NCBI GenBank assembly: GCA_947625435.1
Contig: CANQOI010000003.1
Coordinates: 1,591 to 65,590 of the forward strand
Length of the DNA: 64,000 nucleotides
Source: an uncultured Clostridia bacterium
GTDB taxonomy: Bacteria; Bacillota; Clostridia; UBA1212; UBA1255
Reading direction: 5' to 3'
Below are positions 2,536-11,285 of this stretch, piece by piece. How positions within the stretch are numbered: the first letter of the stretch is position 1; each line of letters opens with the position of its first letter. Both the position numbers and the translations under genes were made by a program. Below the pieces are notes generated by a model. The model did no database searches, was not told where the DNA came from, and was given only the letters and a program-made list of their open reading frames with translations.

Positions 2536-2617
2536 CATCAGAATGAAATGCATGTAACGAAGCCTTTTGATCGTTCATAGTATAATTAGTGAATTGATTT
2601 TACAAGAGGCTGAGAAA

Positions 2618-3490
2618 ATGGACGCACAAAAGAAATACAGGTTTTCCGTAGCGGGCGGTGATATGAGAAATGCGGATCTTGCGGAGCTGCTCGCGGCGGG
2701 CGGACACGACGCGTACACATTCGCTTTGGGCAATGCCGGTAAAATGAGCGGCCGCTGCTCAAACCTCGGCGAAGCGGCGGCGCTTTGTGATATTTTGATA
2801 TGCCCGATACCTTTTTCGACCGACGGAATATATCTTAACGCTCCTTTTCACACGGAAAAGATCAGTCTTCAGTCCGTTTCAGACATTTTACGTGAGTCCG
2901 GATTCGGAGGATTGCTCATAGGCGGACGCATACCGCAGGAGATCGTATCAACAGGCGTTGATTGCGTTGATATCCTTATGAGAGACGACCTGGCCATACT
3001 GAATTCTGTCCCCACCGCCGAGGGCGCTCTGCAGATCGCCATGGAGGAGCTTCCGTATACTGTTCACGGCATTAAAGCCGTGGTGTGCGGGATGGGGCGC
3101 GTGGGCTCCGCTCTTGCAAGACTGCTCGTAAAAGCGGGCGCGGATGTCACTGTTTCCGTGAGGAGCAGCCGGGACGCGGCTGTCTGCGAAGCGGAATGTA
3201 TCAAAAGTACATCTTATGAGGATCTGGCCGACATTTTGCCGGACGCTATGCTCGTATACAATACGGTGCCGGCAAGGGTGATCGACAGCCGCCTTTTGGA
3301 CGCGGCCAACGAAAATGCTCTTTTTATCGATCTCGCGTCGGCGCCGGGAGGCATCGATTTTGACTATGCCGCTTCCAGACACCTGCGTGTTATACACGCT
3401 CTTTCTCTTCCCGGGAAGGTGGCCCCGGCAGGTGCGGCTCAGATTCTGCAAAAGGTTATATTCAACGTTCTTCGCGAGAAAAATATGTGA
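2618..3490 (+). CDS. dpaA: dipicolinate synthase subunit A (SpoVFA)
   Basis: MDAQKKYRFSVAGGDMRNADLAELL... with an NAD-binding GMGRVG motif. It sits directly upstream of dpaB. Start placed at the ATG after gaggctgag. Confidence 0.85.
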   Translation: MDAQKKYRFSVAGGDMRNADLAELLAAGGHDAYTFALGNAGKMSGRCSNLGEAAALCDILICPIPFSTDGIYLNAPFHTEKISLQSVSDILRESGFGGLLIGGRIPQEIVSTGVDCVDILMRDDLAILNSVPTAEGALQIAMEELPYTVHGIKAVVCGMGRVGSALARLLVKAGADVTVSVRSSRDAAVCEAECIKSTSYEDLADILPDAMLVYNTVPARVIDSRLLDAANENALFIDLASAPGGIDFDYAASRHLRVIHALSLPGKVAPAGAAQILQKVIFNVLREKNM

Positions 3491-3514: not shown

Positions 3515-4099
3515 ATGTTCGAATGTTTCGATGGGCTGCGCGTCGGGCTCGCCGTAACGGGCTCGTTCTGCACTCATAAAAATATTGCCGCCGTTGCTGA
3601 CAATCTTGTTAAGCGCGGCGCCGTTGTTTTTCCGATACTGTCATATGCCTCCTCTGAAACGTCTACGAGATTCATGTCAAGAGAGGAGCTGTATGATACG
3701 CTCGTGAGCATCACGGGGCACGAGCCCATTTGCACTATAAAGGAAGCGGAGCCTATCGGTCCCAAGAAGCTGCTCGATGTGGTGGCCGTCGTGCCCTGCA
3801 CGGGCAATACTATTTCTAAGCTCGCAAATTCCATTACCGACACGCCTGTTCTTATGGCGTGCAAGTCGCATCTGCGAAATAACAGGCCGATCGTCATTGC
3901 GGTCTCTACCAATGACGGTCTGTCAGGCAATGCCAAAAACATAGGTACGCTGCTGGCCATGAAGAATTTCTTTTTTGTTCCCTTCAGGCAGGACGACAGC
4001 GTTAAGAAGCCTTTTTCTCTCATGGCCGATTTTTCGCTTGTGAACGAGACTATCGCCATGGCTCTCGAGGGCTCCCAGCTGCAGCCTATCCTGCTGTAG
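3515..4099 (+). CDS. dpaB: dipicolinate synthase subunit B (SpoVFB, flavoprotein)
   Basis: LRVGLAVTGSFCT...PILSYASSETSTRF...VVPCTGNTISKLANSITDTPV is the typical DpaB flavoprotein pattern. Paired with dpaA. Confidence 0.9.
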   Translation: MFECFDGLRVGLAVTGSFCTHKNIAAVADNLVKRGAVVFPILSYASSETSTRFMSREELYDTLVSITGHEPICTIKEAEPIGPKKLLDVVAVVPCTGNTISKLANSITDTPVLMACKSHLRNNRPIVIAVSTNDGLSGNAKNIGTLLAMKNFFFVPFRQDDSVKKPFSLMADFSLVNETIAMALEGSQLQPILL

Positions 4100-4225: not shown

Positions 4226-4975
4226 TTACTCGTGCATGCCGTTTTTACGCAGCATATCCAGCACTCTGTCGGGAACGTTCGTTATTATTCCGGTTACGCC
4301 GAGCTCCATCGCGCGCTCTATGTCCTGCGGTGCGTCGACTGTCCACACGTTCACGTCTATACCGTTTTCACGGCACTTGTCCACTATTTCTTTATCCATG
4401 CAGTTTATCTCGGGATGTATGATATCCGCCTTATAGCTCCTGACAAATGCCACTGTCTCGTCCGGCGTCATTTTATGCCCGTACAGGAGCGCCGTCCTGA
4501 GATCGGGATGTGCTTCTTTGAGTTCTTTAAGCGACTTGTGGTCAAAGCTCGATATTATGGTGCGCTCCACACATGAATGTTTCACAAGTGAGTCGTACAG
4601 ATGATCAAACGCGAACGGCCTGTCGTCTTTCGGCATGAGCGGCTTTAATTCTATGTTTATCACACGCATGCCGTCCACTATATCGAGGAATTCTTCCAAT
4701 GTGGCTATGTGTGTGCCTTTGTATTTTTCGTCTGTACGTACCCCGAAGTCGTACTGCATGAGCTCTTCGTAGGTCATGTCGCATATCTCGCCCGTACCTG
4801 TCGACATTCTGTTTATATTGCCGTCGTGGCTCAGTACGTATATGTTGTCTTTTGTAAGACGTATATCGTTTTCGACACCGTCGGCTCCCATTTCAACCGC
4901 AAGTCTGAATGACGGCGCAGTGTTTTCCGGCGCGTAAGCCGAAGCGCCTCTGTGCGCCTGTACGTTTATCCTCAT
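4226..4975 (-). CDS. glycerophosphodiester phosphodiesterase (GDPD family)
   Basis: MRINVQAHRGASAYAPENTAPSFRLAVEMGADGVENDIRLTKD... is the canonical GDPD N-terminal HRG...EN...E.D motif. Confidence 0.9.
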   Translation of the reverse strand: MRINVQAHRGASAYAPENTAPSFRLAVEMGADGVENDIRLTKDNIYVLSHDGNINRMSTGTGEICDMTYEELMQYDFGVRTDEKYKGTHIATLEEFLDIVDGMRVINIELKPLMPKDDRPFAFDHLYDSLVKHSCVERTIISSFDHKSLKELKEAHPDLRTALLYGHKMTPDETVAFVRSYKADIIHPEINCMDKEIVDKCRENGIDVNVWTVDAPQDIERAMELGVTGIITNVPDRVLDMLRKNGMHE

Positions 4976-5193
4976 TTCAGCTACCTCCCGTTTAGTTCTT
5001 TTATACGGGACGAATTATAGTCTTTAATACTCATATTATCAAGATTTTTATTCCGCACCGGCGGCGGCGATAAATCAGTTATGGATTTATAAACTAAATA
5101 TTGTAAAATTTTTCTGTGATTTTGCCTTTATAATTTGACAATCCGGTTATAATATGATAGGATAGCAATGTAAAAAAGAGAGGAGATCATTAT

Positions 5194-6402
5194 ATGATCT
5201 GTCAATTTTCATTCAGGAATTTTATGTCATATAAAAATGAGGCTGTATTTGATTTCCAGGCAGCAGCTATTCCCGAGTTGTCCGACAGCGTTATTACGGG
5301 GGATAAGATGTCTGATCTTCTCCCGGCCTGCGTGATATACGGCCCAAACGGAGGCGGAAAGTCTAATCTGCTCAAGGCATTTGCCTGCCTTGTTTGTACT
5401 GTTGTAAAGCCCGTTGCAGATCTCGGAAAGACAAGGGAGGCTTTAATATTGCAGCTTGGGGCAGACTGCATTCCGTTTTTGCTCGATGACAATTCGCGGG
5501 ATGAGAGCACCATGTTCCGAGTTTATTTCCGCACTGACGGCAGCGAATACCGGTACAGCTTGGCTATAAATAAAGACGAGATAGTATCCGAATCTCTTTC
5601 ATGGAGAAATATCGGAGGGAAGAAAACAGGCGTTGTCTTTATAAGAAACTTTAGTGACATAGACCTCGGAGCCAGCATTAATAAGACAAGTGTCAACAAA
5701 CAAGTTAACCCCAAGATGCCTTATCTGTCTTTCCTTGCTATCAATTATGATTTTCCGGTCATAGCAGAGGTAATATCATGGTTTGAATCATGTATTATTC
5801 AAAGTTATGCCAATACGCATGTCGACAGCAGGATATTCTTTACAGATGAGAGCAACAAAAAGTCGATCATCCGAGCTTTGAATGATCTGGATATTGATAT
5901 CGCCGATTACAGATTCAGTGATGACAAGAAGCAAATGTATACTGTCAGAACAGTAAATGAAAAATCATATGAACTGCCTTTCGAATACGAATCCGACGGC
6001 ACAAGAAAGCTGCTTACAGCTCTTCCTATCATACTGATCGCACTTCGTTACGGAAGATTTGTTGTTATAGATGAGCTGGATGCCAAACTTCATCCGAAGC
6101 TCCTTCGTTATATAATCAAGCTCTTTCACAACCCCGAGATCAATAAAAACGGAGCCCAGTTGCTTTACACCTCTCACGATCTGACTACCATGAAGAATGA
6201 TCTGTTCCGCAGAGATGAGATATGGTTTGCATGTGAAAATGATTCTCATGAGAGTGAAATATATTCATTATATGATATTCGCGACGAAAATGACAAACAC
6301 GTCAATAATACCGCCGCATACGATAAGCAGTATATAGAAGGAAGATACGGCGCCGATCCTTACCTGCAGAATATTTTAGGAGGCGAATGGAATGAGTCTT
6401 AA
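5194..6402 (+). CDS. ABC/AAA_21-type P-loop ATPase (AbiLi / AriA-like defence ATPase candidate)
   Basis: Walker A GPNGGGKS (5341-5364), ESDGTRKLL signature-like motif, Walker B FVVIDELDAKLHP (6058-6096), C-terminal RYGADPY. Strong SD agaggag lies before the ATG. AT-rich relative to the flanks. Confidence 0.8.
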   Translation: MICQFSFRNFMSYKNEAVFDFQAAAIPELSDSVITGDKMSDLLPACVIYGPNGGGKSNLLKAFACLVCTVVKPVADLGKTREALILQLGADCIPFLLDDNSRDESTMFRVYFRTDGSEYRYSLAINKDEIVSESLSWRNIGGKKTGVVFIRNFSDIDLGASINKTSVNKQVNPKMPYLSFLAINYDFPVIAEVISWFESCIIQSYANTHVDSRIFFTDESNKKSIIRALNDLDIDIADYRFSDDKKQMYTVRTVNEKSYELPFEYESDGTRKLLTALPIILIALRYGRFVVIDELDAKLHPKLLRYIIKLFHNPEINKNGAQLLYTSHDLTTMKNDLFRRDEIWFACENDSHESEIYSLYDIRDENDKHVNNTAAYDKQYIEGRYGADPYLQNILGGEWNES

Positions 6403-7069
6403 GCCGACTAAAAAAACGGATCTTGGCAAGGACTGGCTTAAAGGCCGTGAGGCGCGGTCAACAAGAGTAAGACTCAATCCCGAATATCATCTTATTGTCA
6501 CTGAAGGAATTGATACAGAGCCGAGATATTTTGAAGCTATAAAAAACGAGATAAATAAGAATTTCAAAGACCGTATCAGCTTCGAAATAATCGGTACGGG
6601 AGATAATACAATCAGTCTTTTCAAAAAAGCTAAGTCCATCGTTGACAAAAGTCCCAATGGATTCAAGCACGTTTGGATCGTATACGATACCGACGACTTT
6701 CCACGGGAAAACATAAATCAAACTTTTGAGTTATGTAAGTCAAGCTCCACCGACGAAACAAAGTATCATGCTTTATGGTCTAATCAATGTATTGAACTCT
6801 GGTTCCTGCTTCACTTTGCCTACTATCATTCGGACATACACAGAACTGAGTATTGGCCGAAATTGACTGAACACCTAAAAAAAATCAATGCCGGAGAGTA
6901 TACAAAGGATCGCGATGATATGTATCTGATTTTGAAGCCGTTTGTTGATACTGCAATAAAAAATGCAAAAAAACTTGCATTTAGAAATCAAGGAAAAACA
7001 CCGGCAGAATCAGCCCCAGGCACTGAGGTATATCAGATCATTGAGATGCTTAAACCGTTTCTAAACTAA
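6392..7069 (+). CDS. RloB-like (TOPRIM-related) protein, AbiLii-like
   Basis: LIVTEGIDTEPRYF (6491-6532), WIVYDTDDF (6674-6700) and SNQCIELWFLLHF match RloB family motifs as I remember them. The start overlaps the ATPase stop by 11 nt. Confidence 0.75.
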   Translation: MSLKPTKKTDLGKDWLKGREARSTRVRLNPEYHLIVTEGIDTEPRYFEAIKNEINKNFKDRISFEIIGTGDNTISLFKKAKSIVDKSPNGFKHVWIVYDTDDFPRENINQTFELCKSSSTDETKYHALWSNQCIELWFLLHFAYYHSDIHRTEYWPKLTEHLKKINAGEYTKDRDDMYLILKPFVDTAIKNAKKLAFRNQGKTPAESAPGTEVYQIIEMLKPFLN

Positions 7070-7087
7070 ATGGATAGGAGATCACAC

Positions 7088-7267
7088 ATGAATGTAACCT
7101 TTGTAAATCCCGGAGTGGATTATATGATTTCGCGGATCATGGAGTCCCAATCCGAAGGTGAGTCCGCATTTTGGTCAGACCCTTTATTTCATTTCTTTCC
7201 TAAACTCGACAAAGCCCATGTCGACAGTCTTCCTTTTTCAACGATCTGCTGTGTAATGTCACTATGA
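7088..7267 (+). CDS. small ORF (59 aa), probably the N-terminal part of a frameshifted gene
   Basis: ATG 7088 lies 7 nt after AGGAG. The stop overlaps the next ATG (ATGA at 7264-7267). The frame of the next ORF is already open from 7204. Confidence 0.4.
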   Translation: MNVTFVNPGVDYMISRIMESQSEGESAFWSDPLFHFFPKLDKAHVDSLPFSTICCVMSL

Positions 7268-7662
7268 ATCCGATCGAACCGCGTTTTCTCAAGGAGCATC
7301 GCTTTGATGTTTTTTATCTGAACAGCGAAAAAGGAGCTATCGGTGAAAGTATACATGAAATCGTGCACTTTATGTGGTTTTATGTATGGAATCAGTTGTT
7401 CGGTGACGATTACGATGAGTACGAGCGACCCTCGCTTAACCGGCTCAGTTCAATCAATCCTTACTTTCCCGGAGAAAACGGAGGATGTATATATCCCTGT
7501 TTCTTTGATATGAAGGTGAACGGTGTGCTGATACCGGATACGCTCAATACCATGTATAAGTCTCAGAGTATTGAAAATTTCATGCGCAACAGTTTTGCTT
7601 ATTGCAAGGAACACGAGACTGAAATCAGAGAGCACATGATCAAATCAAACGGAGCGGTATGA
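7264..7662 (+). CDS. hypothetical protein with an HExxH motif (IHEIVHFMWF)
   Basis: 132-aa ORF in the operon. HEIVH is encoded near 7350-7365. It is followed by a strong terminator. No family recognised. Confidence 0.5.
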   Translation: MNPIEPRFLKEHRFDVFYLNSEKGAIGESIHEIVHFMWFYVWNQLFGDDYDEYERPSLNRLSSINPYFPGENGGCIYPCFFDMKVNGVLIPDTLNTMYKSQSIENFMRNSFAYCKEHETEIREHMIKSNGAV

Positions 7663-7674
7663 TAAATTCCCGTT

Positions 7675-7708
7675 AAGGAACGGCATGACCGAGATCATGC
7701 CGTTCCTT
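7675..7708. terminator. bidirectional rho-independent terminator (14-bp stem)
   Basis: aaggaacggcatga / ccgaga / tcatgccgttcctt, followed by a T-rich tract on the plus strand. It sits between the 7264-7662 ORF and the nifJ stop (7737). Confidence 0.8.
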
Positions 7709-7736
7709 CAGAATTTTATTGATTTTTCTTTACCGT

Positions 7737-10700
7737 TTACGCCTCGTACAGATCTCTCAGCTTGAGCAGATGCTCATACTTAGCCTTGGCGGCATCAGCA
7801 GCCTTGGCAAAGAGCTCCTCTGCCCTCTCCGGGAACGCCTGCTTCAGGCGGCTGTAACGCGTTTCACTCTGTATGAAGTCGATATAGCTCTCCGTAGGAG
7901 CCTTGCAATCGATCGTAAGAGGATTCTTGCCCTCAGCCTTGAGCGCAGGGTTGAAACGGAATGTCTGCCAATATCCGGCGGCAACAGCCTTCTTCATCTC
8001 GGACTGGCAGTTCGTCATGCCGCCCTTGACACCGTGCATTTCACAGGGAGCATATCCTATCACAATGGAAGGACCGTGATAAGCCTCCGCCTCCGTAAGA
8101 GCCTTTATAGTCTGGTTCATATCTGCGCCCATTGCTATCTGAGCCACATAAACGTAACCGTAGGACATGGCGATCTCGGCAAGGTTCTTCTTGCCTATGG
8201 ACTTGCCTGCCGCGGCAAACTGAGCTACCTGACCTATCTGGCTCGCCTTGGACGCCTGTCCGCCGGTATTGGAGTAAACCTCTGTATCAAATACCATCAC
8301 GTTTACATCCTCTCCCGAAGCCAGAACATGGTCGAGTCCGCCGAAGCCTATATCATATGCCCATCCGTCGCCGCCGAATATCCATACGGACTTCTTGGCA
8401 AGATATTCCTTGCTCGCAAGTATCGTCTTGCGCTCCTCACAGTCGCAGTCAAGTGTTTCGAGCTTTGCTATAAGCTTTGCGGCAGGCTCTGCATTCGCCT
8501 TGCCGTCATCCTTTGTATCAAGGAATGCGGTGCAGAGAGCCTTCACTTCATCATCGGAAGTCTTGTCGGCAATACGCTCAACACATGCTATGAGCCTGTC
8601 TCTTATGGCCTTCTGACCTAAGAATATTCCGAGTCCGTGCTCCGCATTGTCCTCAAAGAGGCTGTTGCCCCATGCCGGTCCGCGGCCTGAGTCACGGTTT
8701 ACAGTATAAGGTGTGGCAGGCGCCGAGCCGCCCCATATGGAAGAGCATCCGGTAGCATTTGAAATATACATGCGCTCGCCGAAGAGCTGTGTTATAAGTC
8801 TTGCATATGATGTCTCCGCACAGCCTGCGCAGGAGCCTGAGAATTCAAGCAGCGGCTGGTTGAACTGGCTGCCCTTTACCGAGAAATCGCTGAAGGATGT
8901 GGGCTTCTTCGTGACCGTAGCCACAGTATAATCGAATGCCGCCTGCTGATCCTTCTGAGATTCCTGAGATACCATGCGAAGAGCCTTTTCCTTGGCGGGG
9001 CACACATTTACGCACAGTCCGCATCCCATACAGTCAAGCGGGCTTATCGAAACCGTGAATGTGTATTCCTCGCAGCCCTTGCCCTTCATCTGTACCTTCT
9101 TTGTAGATGCCGGAGCACCGGCTGCCTCCTCCGCGTTCATGACGAACGGACGGATCGTGGCATGCGGGCATACGAAGGAGCACTGGTTACACTGTATACA
9201 ATTCTCGGGTATCCACTCAGGAACGTCCACGGCAACTCCGCGCTTTTCAAATGCGGCGGAGCCCTGCGGGAACGTACCGTCAGCTCTGTCCTTAAATACC
9301 GATACGGGCAGAGAATCGCCCTGCATCATGCCCACGGGCTGAAGTATCTCTTTCACAAATCTGGCAAGCTCCGGAGACTTACTGTTGACATCGCGCTCCT
9401 CTTTTACAACGGGAAGCGTCTTCCATGACTCGGGAACGTCGATCTTAACTATCGCGTCAACGCCCGCGTCTATCGCCTTATAGTTCATTTCAACTACGGC
9501 TTCGCCCTTCTTCATATATGACTTCTTGGCTGCCGCCTTCATATATTCGACCGCCGTATCTATCGGTAAAATGTTAGCGAGCGCGAAGAATGCGGACTGG
9601 AGTATAGTATTCGTCCTCTTGCCCATTCCTATCTCTCTCGCCTTGTCGATAGCATTTACTATATAGAACTTAATGTCGTTTTCCGCGATATATCTCTTGA
9701 CCTCTGCCGGCAGGTGCTTTTCAAGCTCCTCCGGAGTCCACTGACAGTTAAGGAGGAACGTACCGCCCGGCTTAACATCATTTACTATCTTATATCCCTT
9801 GAGCATGTATGACGGATTGTGGCATGCAACGAAGTCGGCCTTTGTTATATAGTACGACGACTTTATGGGCTTATCTCCGAAGCGCAGGTGCGATATAGTA
9901 ACGCCGCCCGTCTTCTTTGAGTCATACTGGAAGTATGCCTGTATGAATTTGTCCGTATGGTCGCCTATTATCTTTATCGAATTCTTGTTCGCGCCCACCG
10001 TTCCGTCTCCGCCGAGACCCCAGAACTTGCAGCTTATTGTGCCTGCGGGAGCCGTATCCGGAGCGGGCTTCTCCGCAAGGGAGTGATGCGTGACATCGTC
10101 CACTATTCCTATGGTGAAATTTCCCTTAGGCTCGTCGGCCTTGAGATTCTCATATACGGCAAATATGCTCGGCGGAGGCGTATCCTTGGAGCCGAGTCCG
10201 TAGCGTCCGCCTACTACCTTGGCATTTACGCCCTTGGAAGCAAGAGCGGCGGCAACATCGAGATAAAGAGGCTCGCCCAAGGAGCCGGGCTCCTTCGTCC
10301 TGTCGAGCACTGCTATCTTCTTAGCTGTTGAAGGTATAGCCTCTATGAGCTTCTCTGCGCTGAAGGGTCTGTAAAGTCTTACCTTAACAAGACCTACCTT
10401 CTCGCCGCGGGCATTCATATAATCTATTACTTCCTCAGCCACATCGCAAATAGAGCCCATGGCAACTATGACCCTGTCGGCATCGGGAGCGCCGTAATAG
10501 TTGAACAGCTTATAATTCGTTCCTATCCTGGCATTTACCTGATTCATATAATCCTCGACCACAGCGGGAAGTGCCTCATAATAGCTGTTGCACGCCTCTC
10601 TGTGCTGGAAGAATATATCTCCGTTCTCTGCGCTGCCTCTTAATACAGGATGCTCGGGATTGAGAGCTCTCTTTCTGAACTCCGCAAGAGCGTCCCTGTC

Positions 10701-11285
10701 TATCATGGAAGCAAGCTCGTCGTAATCCCATGCTTCTATCTTCTGTATCTCATGAGATGTGCGGAATCCGTCGAAGAAATTGATAAAAGGAACTCTGCCC
10801 TTTATCGCGGACAGATGCGCAACGGCGCCCAGATCCATGACCTCCTGAGGATTCGTGCATGCCAGCATCGCAAAGCCTGTCTGACGGCACGCATATATAT
10901 CGGAATGATCTCCGAAAATGTTGAGTGCGTGAGACGCAACGCATCTTGCGGAAACGTGTATAACGCAGGGAAGCAGCTCGCCCGCTATTTTATACATGTT
11001 AGGTATCATAAGAAGCAGTCCCTGGGATGCGGTATATGTCGTTGTAAGAGCGCCCGCCGCAAGGCTTCCGTGAACGGTGCCGGCGGCGCCTGCCTCTGAC
11101 TGCATTTCAATTACTTTAACTTTATCTCCGAAAATATTCTTAAGACCCGTAGCCGACCATGAGTCCGTCAGCTCAGCCATAACACTGGACGGCGTTATAG
11201 GATAAATACTCGCGACCTCTGTAAAAGCATAGCTCACATGAGCGGCGGCTGTATTTCCGTCCATTGATATCTTCTTTCTGGACAT
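7737..11285 (-). CDS. nifJ: pyruvate:ferredoxin (flavodoxin) oxidoreductase
   Basis: 1182-aa protein. MDGNTAAAHVSYAFTEVASIYPITPSS at the N-terminus, two 4Fe-4S CxxCxxCxxxCP motifs, and a GGDGWAYDIGFGG TPP motif. Confidence 0.97.
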   Translation of the reverse strand: MSRKKISMDGNTAAAHVSYAFTEVASIYPITPSSVMAELTDSWSATGLKNIFGDKVKVIEMQSEAGAAGTVHGSLAAGALTTTYTASQGLLLMIPNMYKIAGELLPCVIHVSARCVASHALNIFGDHSDIYACRQTGFAMLACTNPQEVMDLGAVAHLSAIKGRVPFINFFDGFRTSHEIQKIEAWDYDELASMIDRDALAEFRKRALNPEHPVLRGSAENGDIFFQHREACNSYYEALPAVVEDYMNQVNARIGTNYKLFNYYGAPDADRVIVAMGSICDVAEEVIDYMNARGEKVGLVKVRLYRPFSAEKLIEAIPSTAKKIAVLDRTKEPGSLGEPLYLDVAAALASKGVNAKVVGGRYGLGSKDTPPPSIFAVYENLKADEPKGNFTIGIVDDVTHHSLAEKPAPDTAPAGTISCKFWGLGGDGTVGANKNSIKIIGDHTDKFIQAYFQYDSKKTGGVTISHLRFGDKPIKSSYYITKADFVACHNPSYMLKGYKIVNDVKPGGTFLLNCQWTPEELEKHLPAEVKRYIAENDIKFYIVNAIDKAREIGMGKRTNTILQSAFFALANILPIDTAVEYMKAAAKKSYMKKGEAVVEMNYKAIDAGVDAIVKIDVPESWKTLPVVKEERDVNSKSPELARFVKEILQPVGMMQGDSLPVSVFKDRADGTFPQGSAAFEKRGVAVDVPEWIPENCIQCNQCSFVCPHATIRPFVMNAEEAAGAPASTKKVQMKGKGCEEYTFTVSISPLDCMGCGLCVNVCPAKEKALRMVSQESQKDQQAAFDYTVATVTKKPTSFSDFSVKGSQFNQPLLEFSGSCAGCAETSYARLITQLFGERMYISNATGCSSIWGGSAPATPYTVNRDSGRGPAWGNSLFEDNAEHGLGIFLGQKAIRDRLIACVERIADKTSDDEVKALCTAFLDTKDDGKANAEPAAKLIAKLETLDCDCEERKTILASKEYLAKKSVWIFGGDGWAYDIGFGGLDHVLASGEDVNVMVFDTEVYSNTGGQASKASQIGQVAQFAAAGKSIGKKNLAEIAMSYGYVYVAQIAMGADMNQTIKALTEAEAYHGPSIVIGYAPCEMHGVKGGMTNCQSEMKKAVAAGYWQTFRFNPALKAEGKNPLTIDCKAPTESYIDFIQSETRYSRLKQAFPERAEELFAKAADAAKAKYEHLLKLRDLYEA

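Follow-up and report, generated by a model that had tools for sequence, protein, structure and literature searches.

Reading frames downstream of an AbiL gene pair

The window analyzed here, a 64,000-nucleotide (nt) stretch of contig CANQOI010000003.1 from an uncultured Clostridia bacterium (assembly GCA_947625435.1), carries at positions 7088 to 7662 two short, overlapping open reading frames (ORFs), ORF1 and ORF2, immediately downstream of the two genes of an AbiL abortive-infection system (Table 1). ORF2 contains an HExxH motif. We conclude that this locus is very probably an ordinary pseudogene, the relic of one HExxH zincin-like gene of about 260 codons that was wrecked by two internal deletions.

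The original prediction had offered a recently inactivated gene, a homopolymer sequencing error, a phase-variable switch, or a coupled two-ORF module as explanations for the arrangement, and its description of the reading frames holds throughout. ORF1 and ORF2 overlap by the four bases ATGA, of which the ATG at 7264 opens ORF2. The frame of ORF2, which is the family-homologous frame, has a stop at 7201 to 7203 and is open from 7204, and a run of five thymines (T5) is located at 7234 to 7238. Insertion of one additional T in silico gives the expected fused product, 191 amino acids (aa) in length and containing HEIVH. A further ATG, at 7070, lies upstream of and in frame with that at 7088; the latter is regarded as the ancestral start because of the AGGAG sequence ahead of it and the N termini of the homologues (MNVTF...). 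A search of the window found no second, intact copy of the gene.

Two internal deletions and the decay of the window copy

A search with the fused sequence retrieved 589 homologous proteins, the full-length members of which are single ORFs of 257 to 271 aa. When one genome of each species was scanned, 223 loci were seen to encode a relative, and in the best 80 of these, query residues 1 to 253-260 were matched in one piece; in addition, HMMER matched 598 clusters among 1.84 billion cluster representatives. With amino acid identities of 64 to 93% across Oscillospiraceae, Lachnospiraceae, Christensenellaceae, and other Clostridia, this HExxH family of about 260 residues is a genuine one that occurs widely in gut Clostridia, in every case as one gene. 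The homologues are thus single ORFs rather than consistently two, and the invariance of their HExxH motif speaks against a spurious ORF; together with the two deletions described below, these results bear out the suggestion of a recently inactivated gene.

Protein alignment revealed that the window copy is without 55 residues (columns 51 to 105) between ...SLPF and FNDL..., and that 15 further residues, KWILSEMVVESVMKE, are missing after ...ERPSL. In the DNA alignment with the intact genes of loci L010 and L009, the window copy has gaps of 166 and 45 columns. The first deletion comprises 166 nt, i.e., family residues 51 to 105 plus 1 nt. L010, L014, and L009 each contain two copies of the heptanucleotide TTTTCAA at a distance of exactly 166 nt, of which the upstream copy is part of CCT TTT TCA A (Pro-Phe-Ser-Lys) and the downstream copy is part of AGC CTT TTC AAC (Ser-Leu-Phe-Asn), and the window contains one copy. 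Loss of the sequence between these direct repeats, for which replication slippage or illegitimate recombination is the most likely mechanism, removed 55 codons and put the sequence behind it one base out of frame, since 166 = 3 × 55 + 1. The second deletion, recognized from the distance between fixed anchors (57 versus 12 nt), was a net in-frame loss of 45 nt; next to it, a near-invariant (99% conserved) Lys has been replaced by Asn. In the model of the intact homologue P0001, the first deletion takes out helix 50-98 together with the turn after it, and the second corresponds to helix 172-185, located after the putative zinc-binding Glu.

The frame therefore breaks at the junction of the 166-nt deletion and not, as originally supposed, through a single-nucleotide change in the T run. 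This run is neither longer nor shorter than in the closest intact homologues (L010, L014, and L009), and the same CCTTTTTCAA is found in intact genes as in the window and in L011 to L013; in the ancestral gene the run is read as CCT TTT TCA (Pro-Phe-Ser). T5 accordingly represents ancestral coding sequence rather than a mutated or slippage-prone tract, and the ATGA overlap is accidental, the first out-of-frame stop past the junction happening to meet an internal Met codon.

The same allele was found in three independent metagenome assemblies (ERZ27249386, ERZ27249389, and ERZ27249684), which have the identical arrangement of 59-aa and 132-aa ORFs on contigs that share the AbiL genes and the downstream gene with the window. 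These contigs (L011 to L013), which belong to the same lineage as the window and have a coverage of about 2×, are 99.7 to 100% identical to the window overall and identical across positions 7060 to 7690, T5 included. A few SNPs were seen elsewhere on the contigs, and, judging from the overall identities, some of the contigs represent strains slightly different from that of the window.

Signs of decay extend beyond the deletions. When conservation was scored over 82 intact genes, 31 of the 70 missing columns were at least 90% conserved, with 8 of them invariant. Where sequence is retained, the window copy departs from the family at 13 columns with at least 90% conservation (median for intact genes, 2; maximum, 9), and its substitutions R129G and L150P affect two invariant columns at which no intact gene departs. 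Branch-specific synonymous and nonsynonymous substitutions numbered 15 and 19 for the window copy, 9 and 3 for L010, and 12 and 10 for L014. The AlphaFold model of the fused product had a predicted local distance difference test score (pLDDT) of 44.9 and a predicted template modeling score (pTM) of 0.47, compared with 85.7 and 0.84 for intact P0001. With 55 plus 15 residues gone and a product that models this poorly, the addition of one T would not repair the gene, as had been assumed.

Several observations weigh against the interpretation as a pseudogene. L014, with its 12 synonymous and 10 nonsynonymous changes, is intact, and the branch counts are small. The pairwise ratio of nonsynonymous to synonymous divergence (dN/dS) is 0.09 to 0.17 between the window copy and intact genes and 0.06 to 0.18 among intact genes and is thus not raised. 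The pLDDT comparison involves alignments of unequal depth (13 versus 31 sequences), that of the fused product being the shallower, and the short allele is known from assembled contigs, not from raw reads. Finally, ORF2 keeps the HExxH motif and the Glu, and its start overlaps the ORF1 stop, so some translation by termination-reinitiation is possible. We consider the branch-specific counts, together with the deviations at conserved sites, to be more informative than pairwise dN/dS; since the latter is not elevated, most of the divergence predates inactivation, and the decay is recent relative to the split from the nearest intact copies (dS of about 0.3).

Reinitiation at ATGA would be central to a functional coupled two-ORF module in which ORF2 is produced as a minimal zincin, possibly working with AbiL. 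We regard such a module as highly unlikely. The ATG of ORF2 corresponds to a Met codon inside the intact gene (..NVTMNPIEP..), and no Shine-Dalgarno sequence was found ahead of it. The encoded protein is without strand 109-114 and helix 172-185 and has Gly and Pro at the two invariant positions named above, and up to residue 135, most of the ORF2 portion of the fused model has a pLDDT below 50. Neither this architecture nor the linkage to AbiL is seen in any homologue elsewhere; the homologues are single ORFs, and the overlap that had suggested coupling is best seen as accidental. We give very little credence to a combined scenario in which the intact family consists of new compact cytoplasmic gluzincin-like hydrolases, whose variable, GNAT-rich accessory neighborhoods fit horizontal spread, while the coupled 132-aa ORF2 has been kept as a minimal zincin modulating AbiL.

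The possibility that the true genome contains six thymines and a single ORF, and that T5 is a sequencing or assembly error, draws on the nature of the data, which are of the metagenome-assembled genome (MAG) type with low-coverage contigs, and on the fact that homopolymers are classic error sites. We nevertheless consider it very remote. The 166-nt deletion fully accounts for the frame change, intact homologues also have T5, and the T6 product would still be 70 residues short. The four assemblies agree base for base, and because the identical T5 allele is present in the three further assemblies, it is no private homopolymer error, and no variation in tract length is seen.

The same constancy bears on the proposal that slipped-strand mispairing in the T run acts as a phase-variable contingency switch, for which the position of T5, precisely where the two frames overlap, might speak. 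As a rule, contingency tracts measure at least 7 nt, and T5 is short. Its length is constant in intact homologues, where the tract is ordinary conserved coding sequence, as well as in the four assemblies of slightly different strains, and the "ON" state would produce a crippled protein without 70 residues and with a pLDDT of 45. A switch of this kind is therefore extremely improbable. Programmed −1 ribosomal frameshifting on CCU UUU U, in which a slip of tRNA-Phe from UUU (7235 to 7237) to UUU (7234 to 7236) would read ...LPFFNDL..., the exact fused sequence, can be practically discounted, given that the site, with U ahead of CCU, does not form a canonical X XXY YYZ heptamer, that the two-frame layout arose by deletion and is found in no homologue, and that the product is truncated and poorly modeled.

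The intact family and the genomic setting of the relic

Besides three short strands, the AlphaFold2 model of intact P0001 has a helix of 49 residues (50-98), a long helix (136-160) that bears the HExxH motif (145-149), and further helices. H145, E146, and H149 are invariant both in 31 diverse members and in the 13-sequence alignment, and E166 and E168 are invariant in the 31 members. E168 lies at x18 spacing from H149, as in the M1-type HExxH-x18-E motif, and is a candidate third zinc ligand on the basis of this spacing and its conservation. Structure-comparison scores against zincins were moderate, at 7.3 for the M1 aminopeptidase ERAP1, 6.9 for lugdulysin (M30), 6.7 for 3cmn, 6.5 for YbeY, 6.4 for Wss1, 5.2 for selecase, and 4.9 for thermolysin; a Foldseek search of the Protein Data Bank (PDB) with the family model gave no significant match. 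In our reading, the intact family is a compact cytoplasmic gluzincin-like metallohydrolase, with metal binding and activity suggested by the motif and the fold resemblance. The zincin-like character originally guessed from the motif is supported for the intact family.

No family was recognized in Pfam, NCBIfam, PADLOC, or PHROGs when the fused protein and intact and distant homologues were scanned, in agreement with the original prediction. A sequence-profile search of the PDB returned nothing below an E value of 0.09, and a tblastn search of plasmid and phage collections gave no family match. The sole name for homologues in any source is "hypothetical protein," with no precomputed Pfam domain. 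The only Pfam or NCBIfam hit was Peptidase_MA_2, on a separate C-terminal domain of the distant member P0249 (488 aa), in which the family domain (32-251) is fused to Peptidase_MA_2 (361-455), giving two HExxH-type modules. This parent family, unnamed and highly conserved, occurs in hundreds of species of gut Clostridia and merits a family definition independent of the window locus.

The flanking genes of intact copies are heterogeneous; GNAT acetyltransferases were found in 7 of 78 cases at each flank and DUF6061 in 5 of 78, the remainder being assorted enzymes. A neighbor search found no conserved operon partner of the intact copies, with a mild excess of GNAT and DUF6061 genes. In one abundant species (L001 to L008, at 5651 to 6978) and at a few other loci, a 79-aa DUF6061 gene lies upstream and a 64-aa NikA-like (mobilization-type) gene lies downstream; 14 loci have the DUF6061 ORF cluster upstream and 12 have the NikA-like cluster downstream, and these flanks may be what is left of a mobile element. 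Family copies also occur in MAGs labeled Bacteroidales and Bacteroides (L045 and L059), which, with the spread of the conserved family over unrelated genomic contexts, points to horizontal transfer or mis-binning.

Damage was also observed in other copies. The cluster representatives P0122, P0134, P0174, P0178, P0128, P0142, and P0133 have large internal deletions, some of which remove HExxH, or frameshift-like C-terminal tails. The copy at L009 (L009:1640-2430; 88% identical to the window copy in the protein alignment), on a contig of 4.4× coverage, has lost 1 nt in a CATTTCTT stretch in the vicinity of codon 36, which reflects an independent frameshift or else an error due to low coverage, and is called as the 232-aa protein P0061 from an internal start. 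It seems that lineages can do without the parent gene and often lose it.

On the minus strand of the window copy, antisense ORFs extend from 7189 to 7368 and from 7450 to 7635. An antisense ORF of about 130 aa was found in 70 loci of the family, and we interpret its recurrence as a by-product of the conserved sense sequence.

Table 1. Features at and around the relic (window coordinates)
Feature	Position	Strand	Remarks
GDPD gene	4226-4975	-	Divergent from AbiL pair
Promoter-like sequence	5135-5163		TTGACA-17-TAGGAT with TG extension, upstream of AbiLi
AbiLi, AAA_21 ABC-type ATPase	5194-6402	+	PADLOC AbiLi, 1.5e-79
AbiLii, RloB domain	6392-7069	+	RloB, 3.7e-40; PADLOC AbiLii, 5.9e-27
AGGAG ribosome-binding site of ancestral gene	7076-7080	+	7 nt 5' of ATG 7088
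ORF1, N-terminal remnant	7088-7267	+	59 aa; codons 1-50 (7088-7237) = family residues 1-50
ORF1 tail past deletion 1 junction			9 out-of-frame codons (STICCVMSL), then first stop (TGA, 7265-7267)
Deletion 1 junction	7235-7241	+	Sole remaining TTTTCAA
ORF2, C-terminal remnant	7264-7662	+	132 aa; family residues about 115-260 minus 15; stop at 7660-7662
HEIVH (HExxH motif)	7354-7368	+	H/E/H invariant family-wide
Candidate third-ligand Glu codon (HExxH-x18-E)	7423-7425	+	
Deletion 2 junction	7438-7441	+	Net in-frame loss of 45 nt
Hairpin	7675-7708		Perfect 14-bp stem; about -25 kcal/mol, z = -5.5; between pseudogene and pyruvate:ferredoxin oxidoreductase gene
Pyruvate:ferredoxin oxidoreductase gene	7737-11285	-	Convergent with pseudogene

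The AbiLi and AbiLii genes overlap by 11 nt, and the pair is apparently intact. AbiL has been described as a two-gene system that pairs an ABC ATPase with a TOPRIM nuclease (PMC11464382). The relic had been proposed to be the distal gene of this putative defense operon, and a linkage of its homologues to such ATPase/RloB pairs had been anticipated. A tblastn search with the window proteins found AbiLi/AbiLii within about 6 kb of the family gene in 0 of approximately 90 loci with intact copies, and among the 93 loci fetched, homologues of the pair were present in L011 to L013 only, so that no AbiL pair accompanies other copies outside the window's own lineage. The DNA similarity of the window to other loci is limited to 7072 to 7678, beginning 2 to 3 nt past the AbiLii stop codon. 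Because the linkage is restricted to L011 to L013 and the similarity is confined to this segment, the juxtaposition is considered lineage specific and the relic is not considered a defense component. AbiLi and AbiLii would then form a self-sufficient two-gene defense module that abuts the relic in this lineage alone.

No terminator was found between AbiLii and the relic. The hairpin downstream of the relic is likely the terminator for the AbiL/pseudogene transcript, and it was not called by the terminator scan because its T tail is weak. Given the lack of a terminator after AbiLii and the strength of this hairpin, the relic is probably transcribed at the 3' end of the AbiL mRNA, of which it is now probably just the 3' untranslated tail. 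The public annotation lists the 132-aa ORF as protein P0006, which would be better labeled a pseudogene fragment and counted neither as a third AbiL component nor as a phase-variable gene.

An Rfam scan of 4900 to 7800 gave sub-threshold chance hits only, among them a Gut-1 RNA hit inside the AbiLi coding sequence (6213 to 6283; 27 bits versus a gathering score of 50) that is most likely due to chance. Farther upstream, the window encodes the dipicolinate synthase subunits DpaA (2567 to 3490) and a DpaB-like flavoprotein (3515 to 4099), which indicates that the host is an endospore-forming Firmicute.

Comparison with known systems

The AbiL abortive-infection system, consisting of the AbiLi ATPase and the RloB/TOPRIM protein AbiLii, is related to PARIS and other OLD-family systems. 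The pseudogene resembles a part of such a system in lying directly 3' of the pair, in the same orientation and not separated from it by a terminator. It differs in that AbiL is a two-gene system, whereas the HExxH family has no PADLOC model and is absent from the phage and plasmid collections searched.

For the intact family, the nearest known kind is that of the zincins and gluzincins of clan MA, including the catalytic domain of M1 aminopeptidases such as ERAP1 and LTA4 hydrolase, the M30 enzyme lugdulysin, and the minimal members YbeY, Wss1/SprT, and selecase. In contrast to these, the family is compact, at about 260 aa, with a 49-residue helix and with no signal peptide or accessory domains. 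The window copy, frameshifted and with two helices missing, is not a working member.

The window copy itself is comparable to bacterial pseudogenes that arise when the sequence between short direct repeats is deleted. While the 45-nt deletion differs from these in having just 1 to 2 nt of microhomology and a neighboring substitution, the 166-nt deletion matches them in that an exact 7-bp repeat bounds the loss (9 of 10 with the CC prefix) and one copy of the repeat is kept, and the window copy shares with them the frameshift, the premature stop, and the accumulation of nonconservative substitutions.
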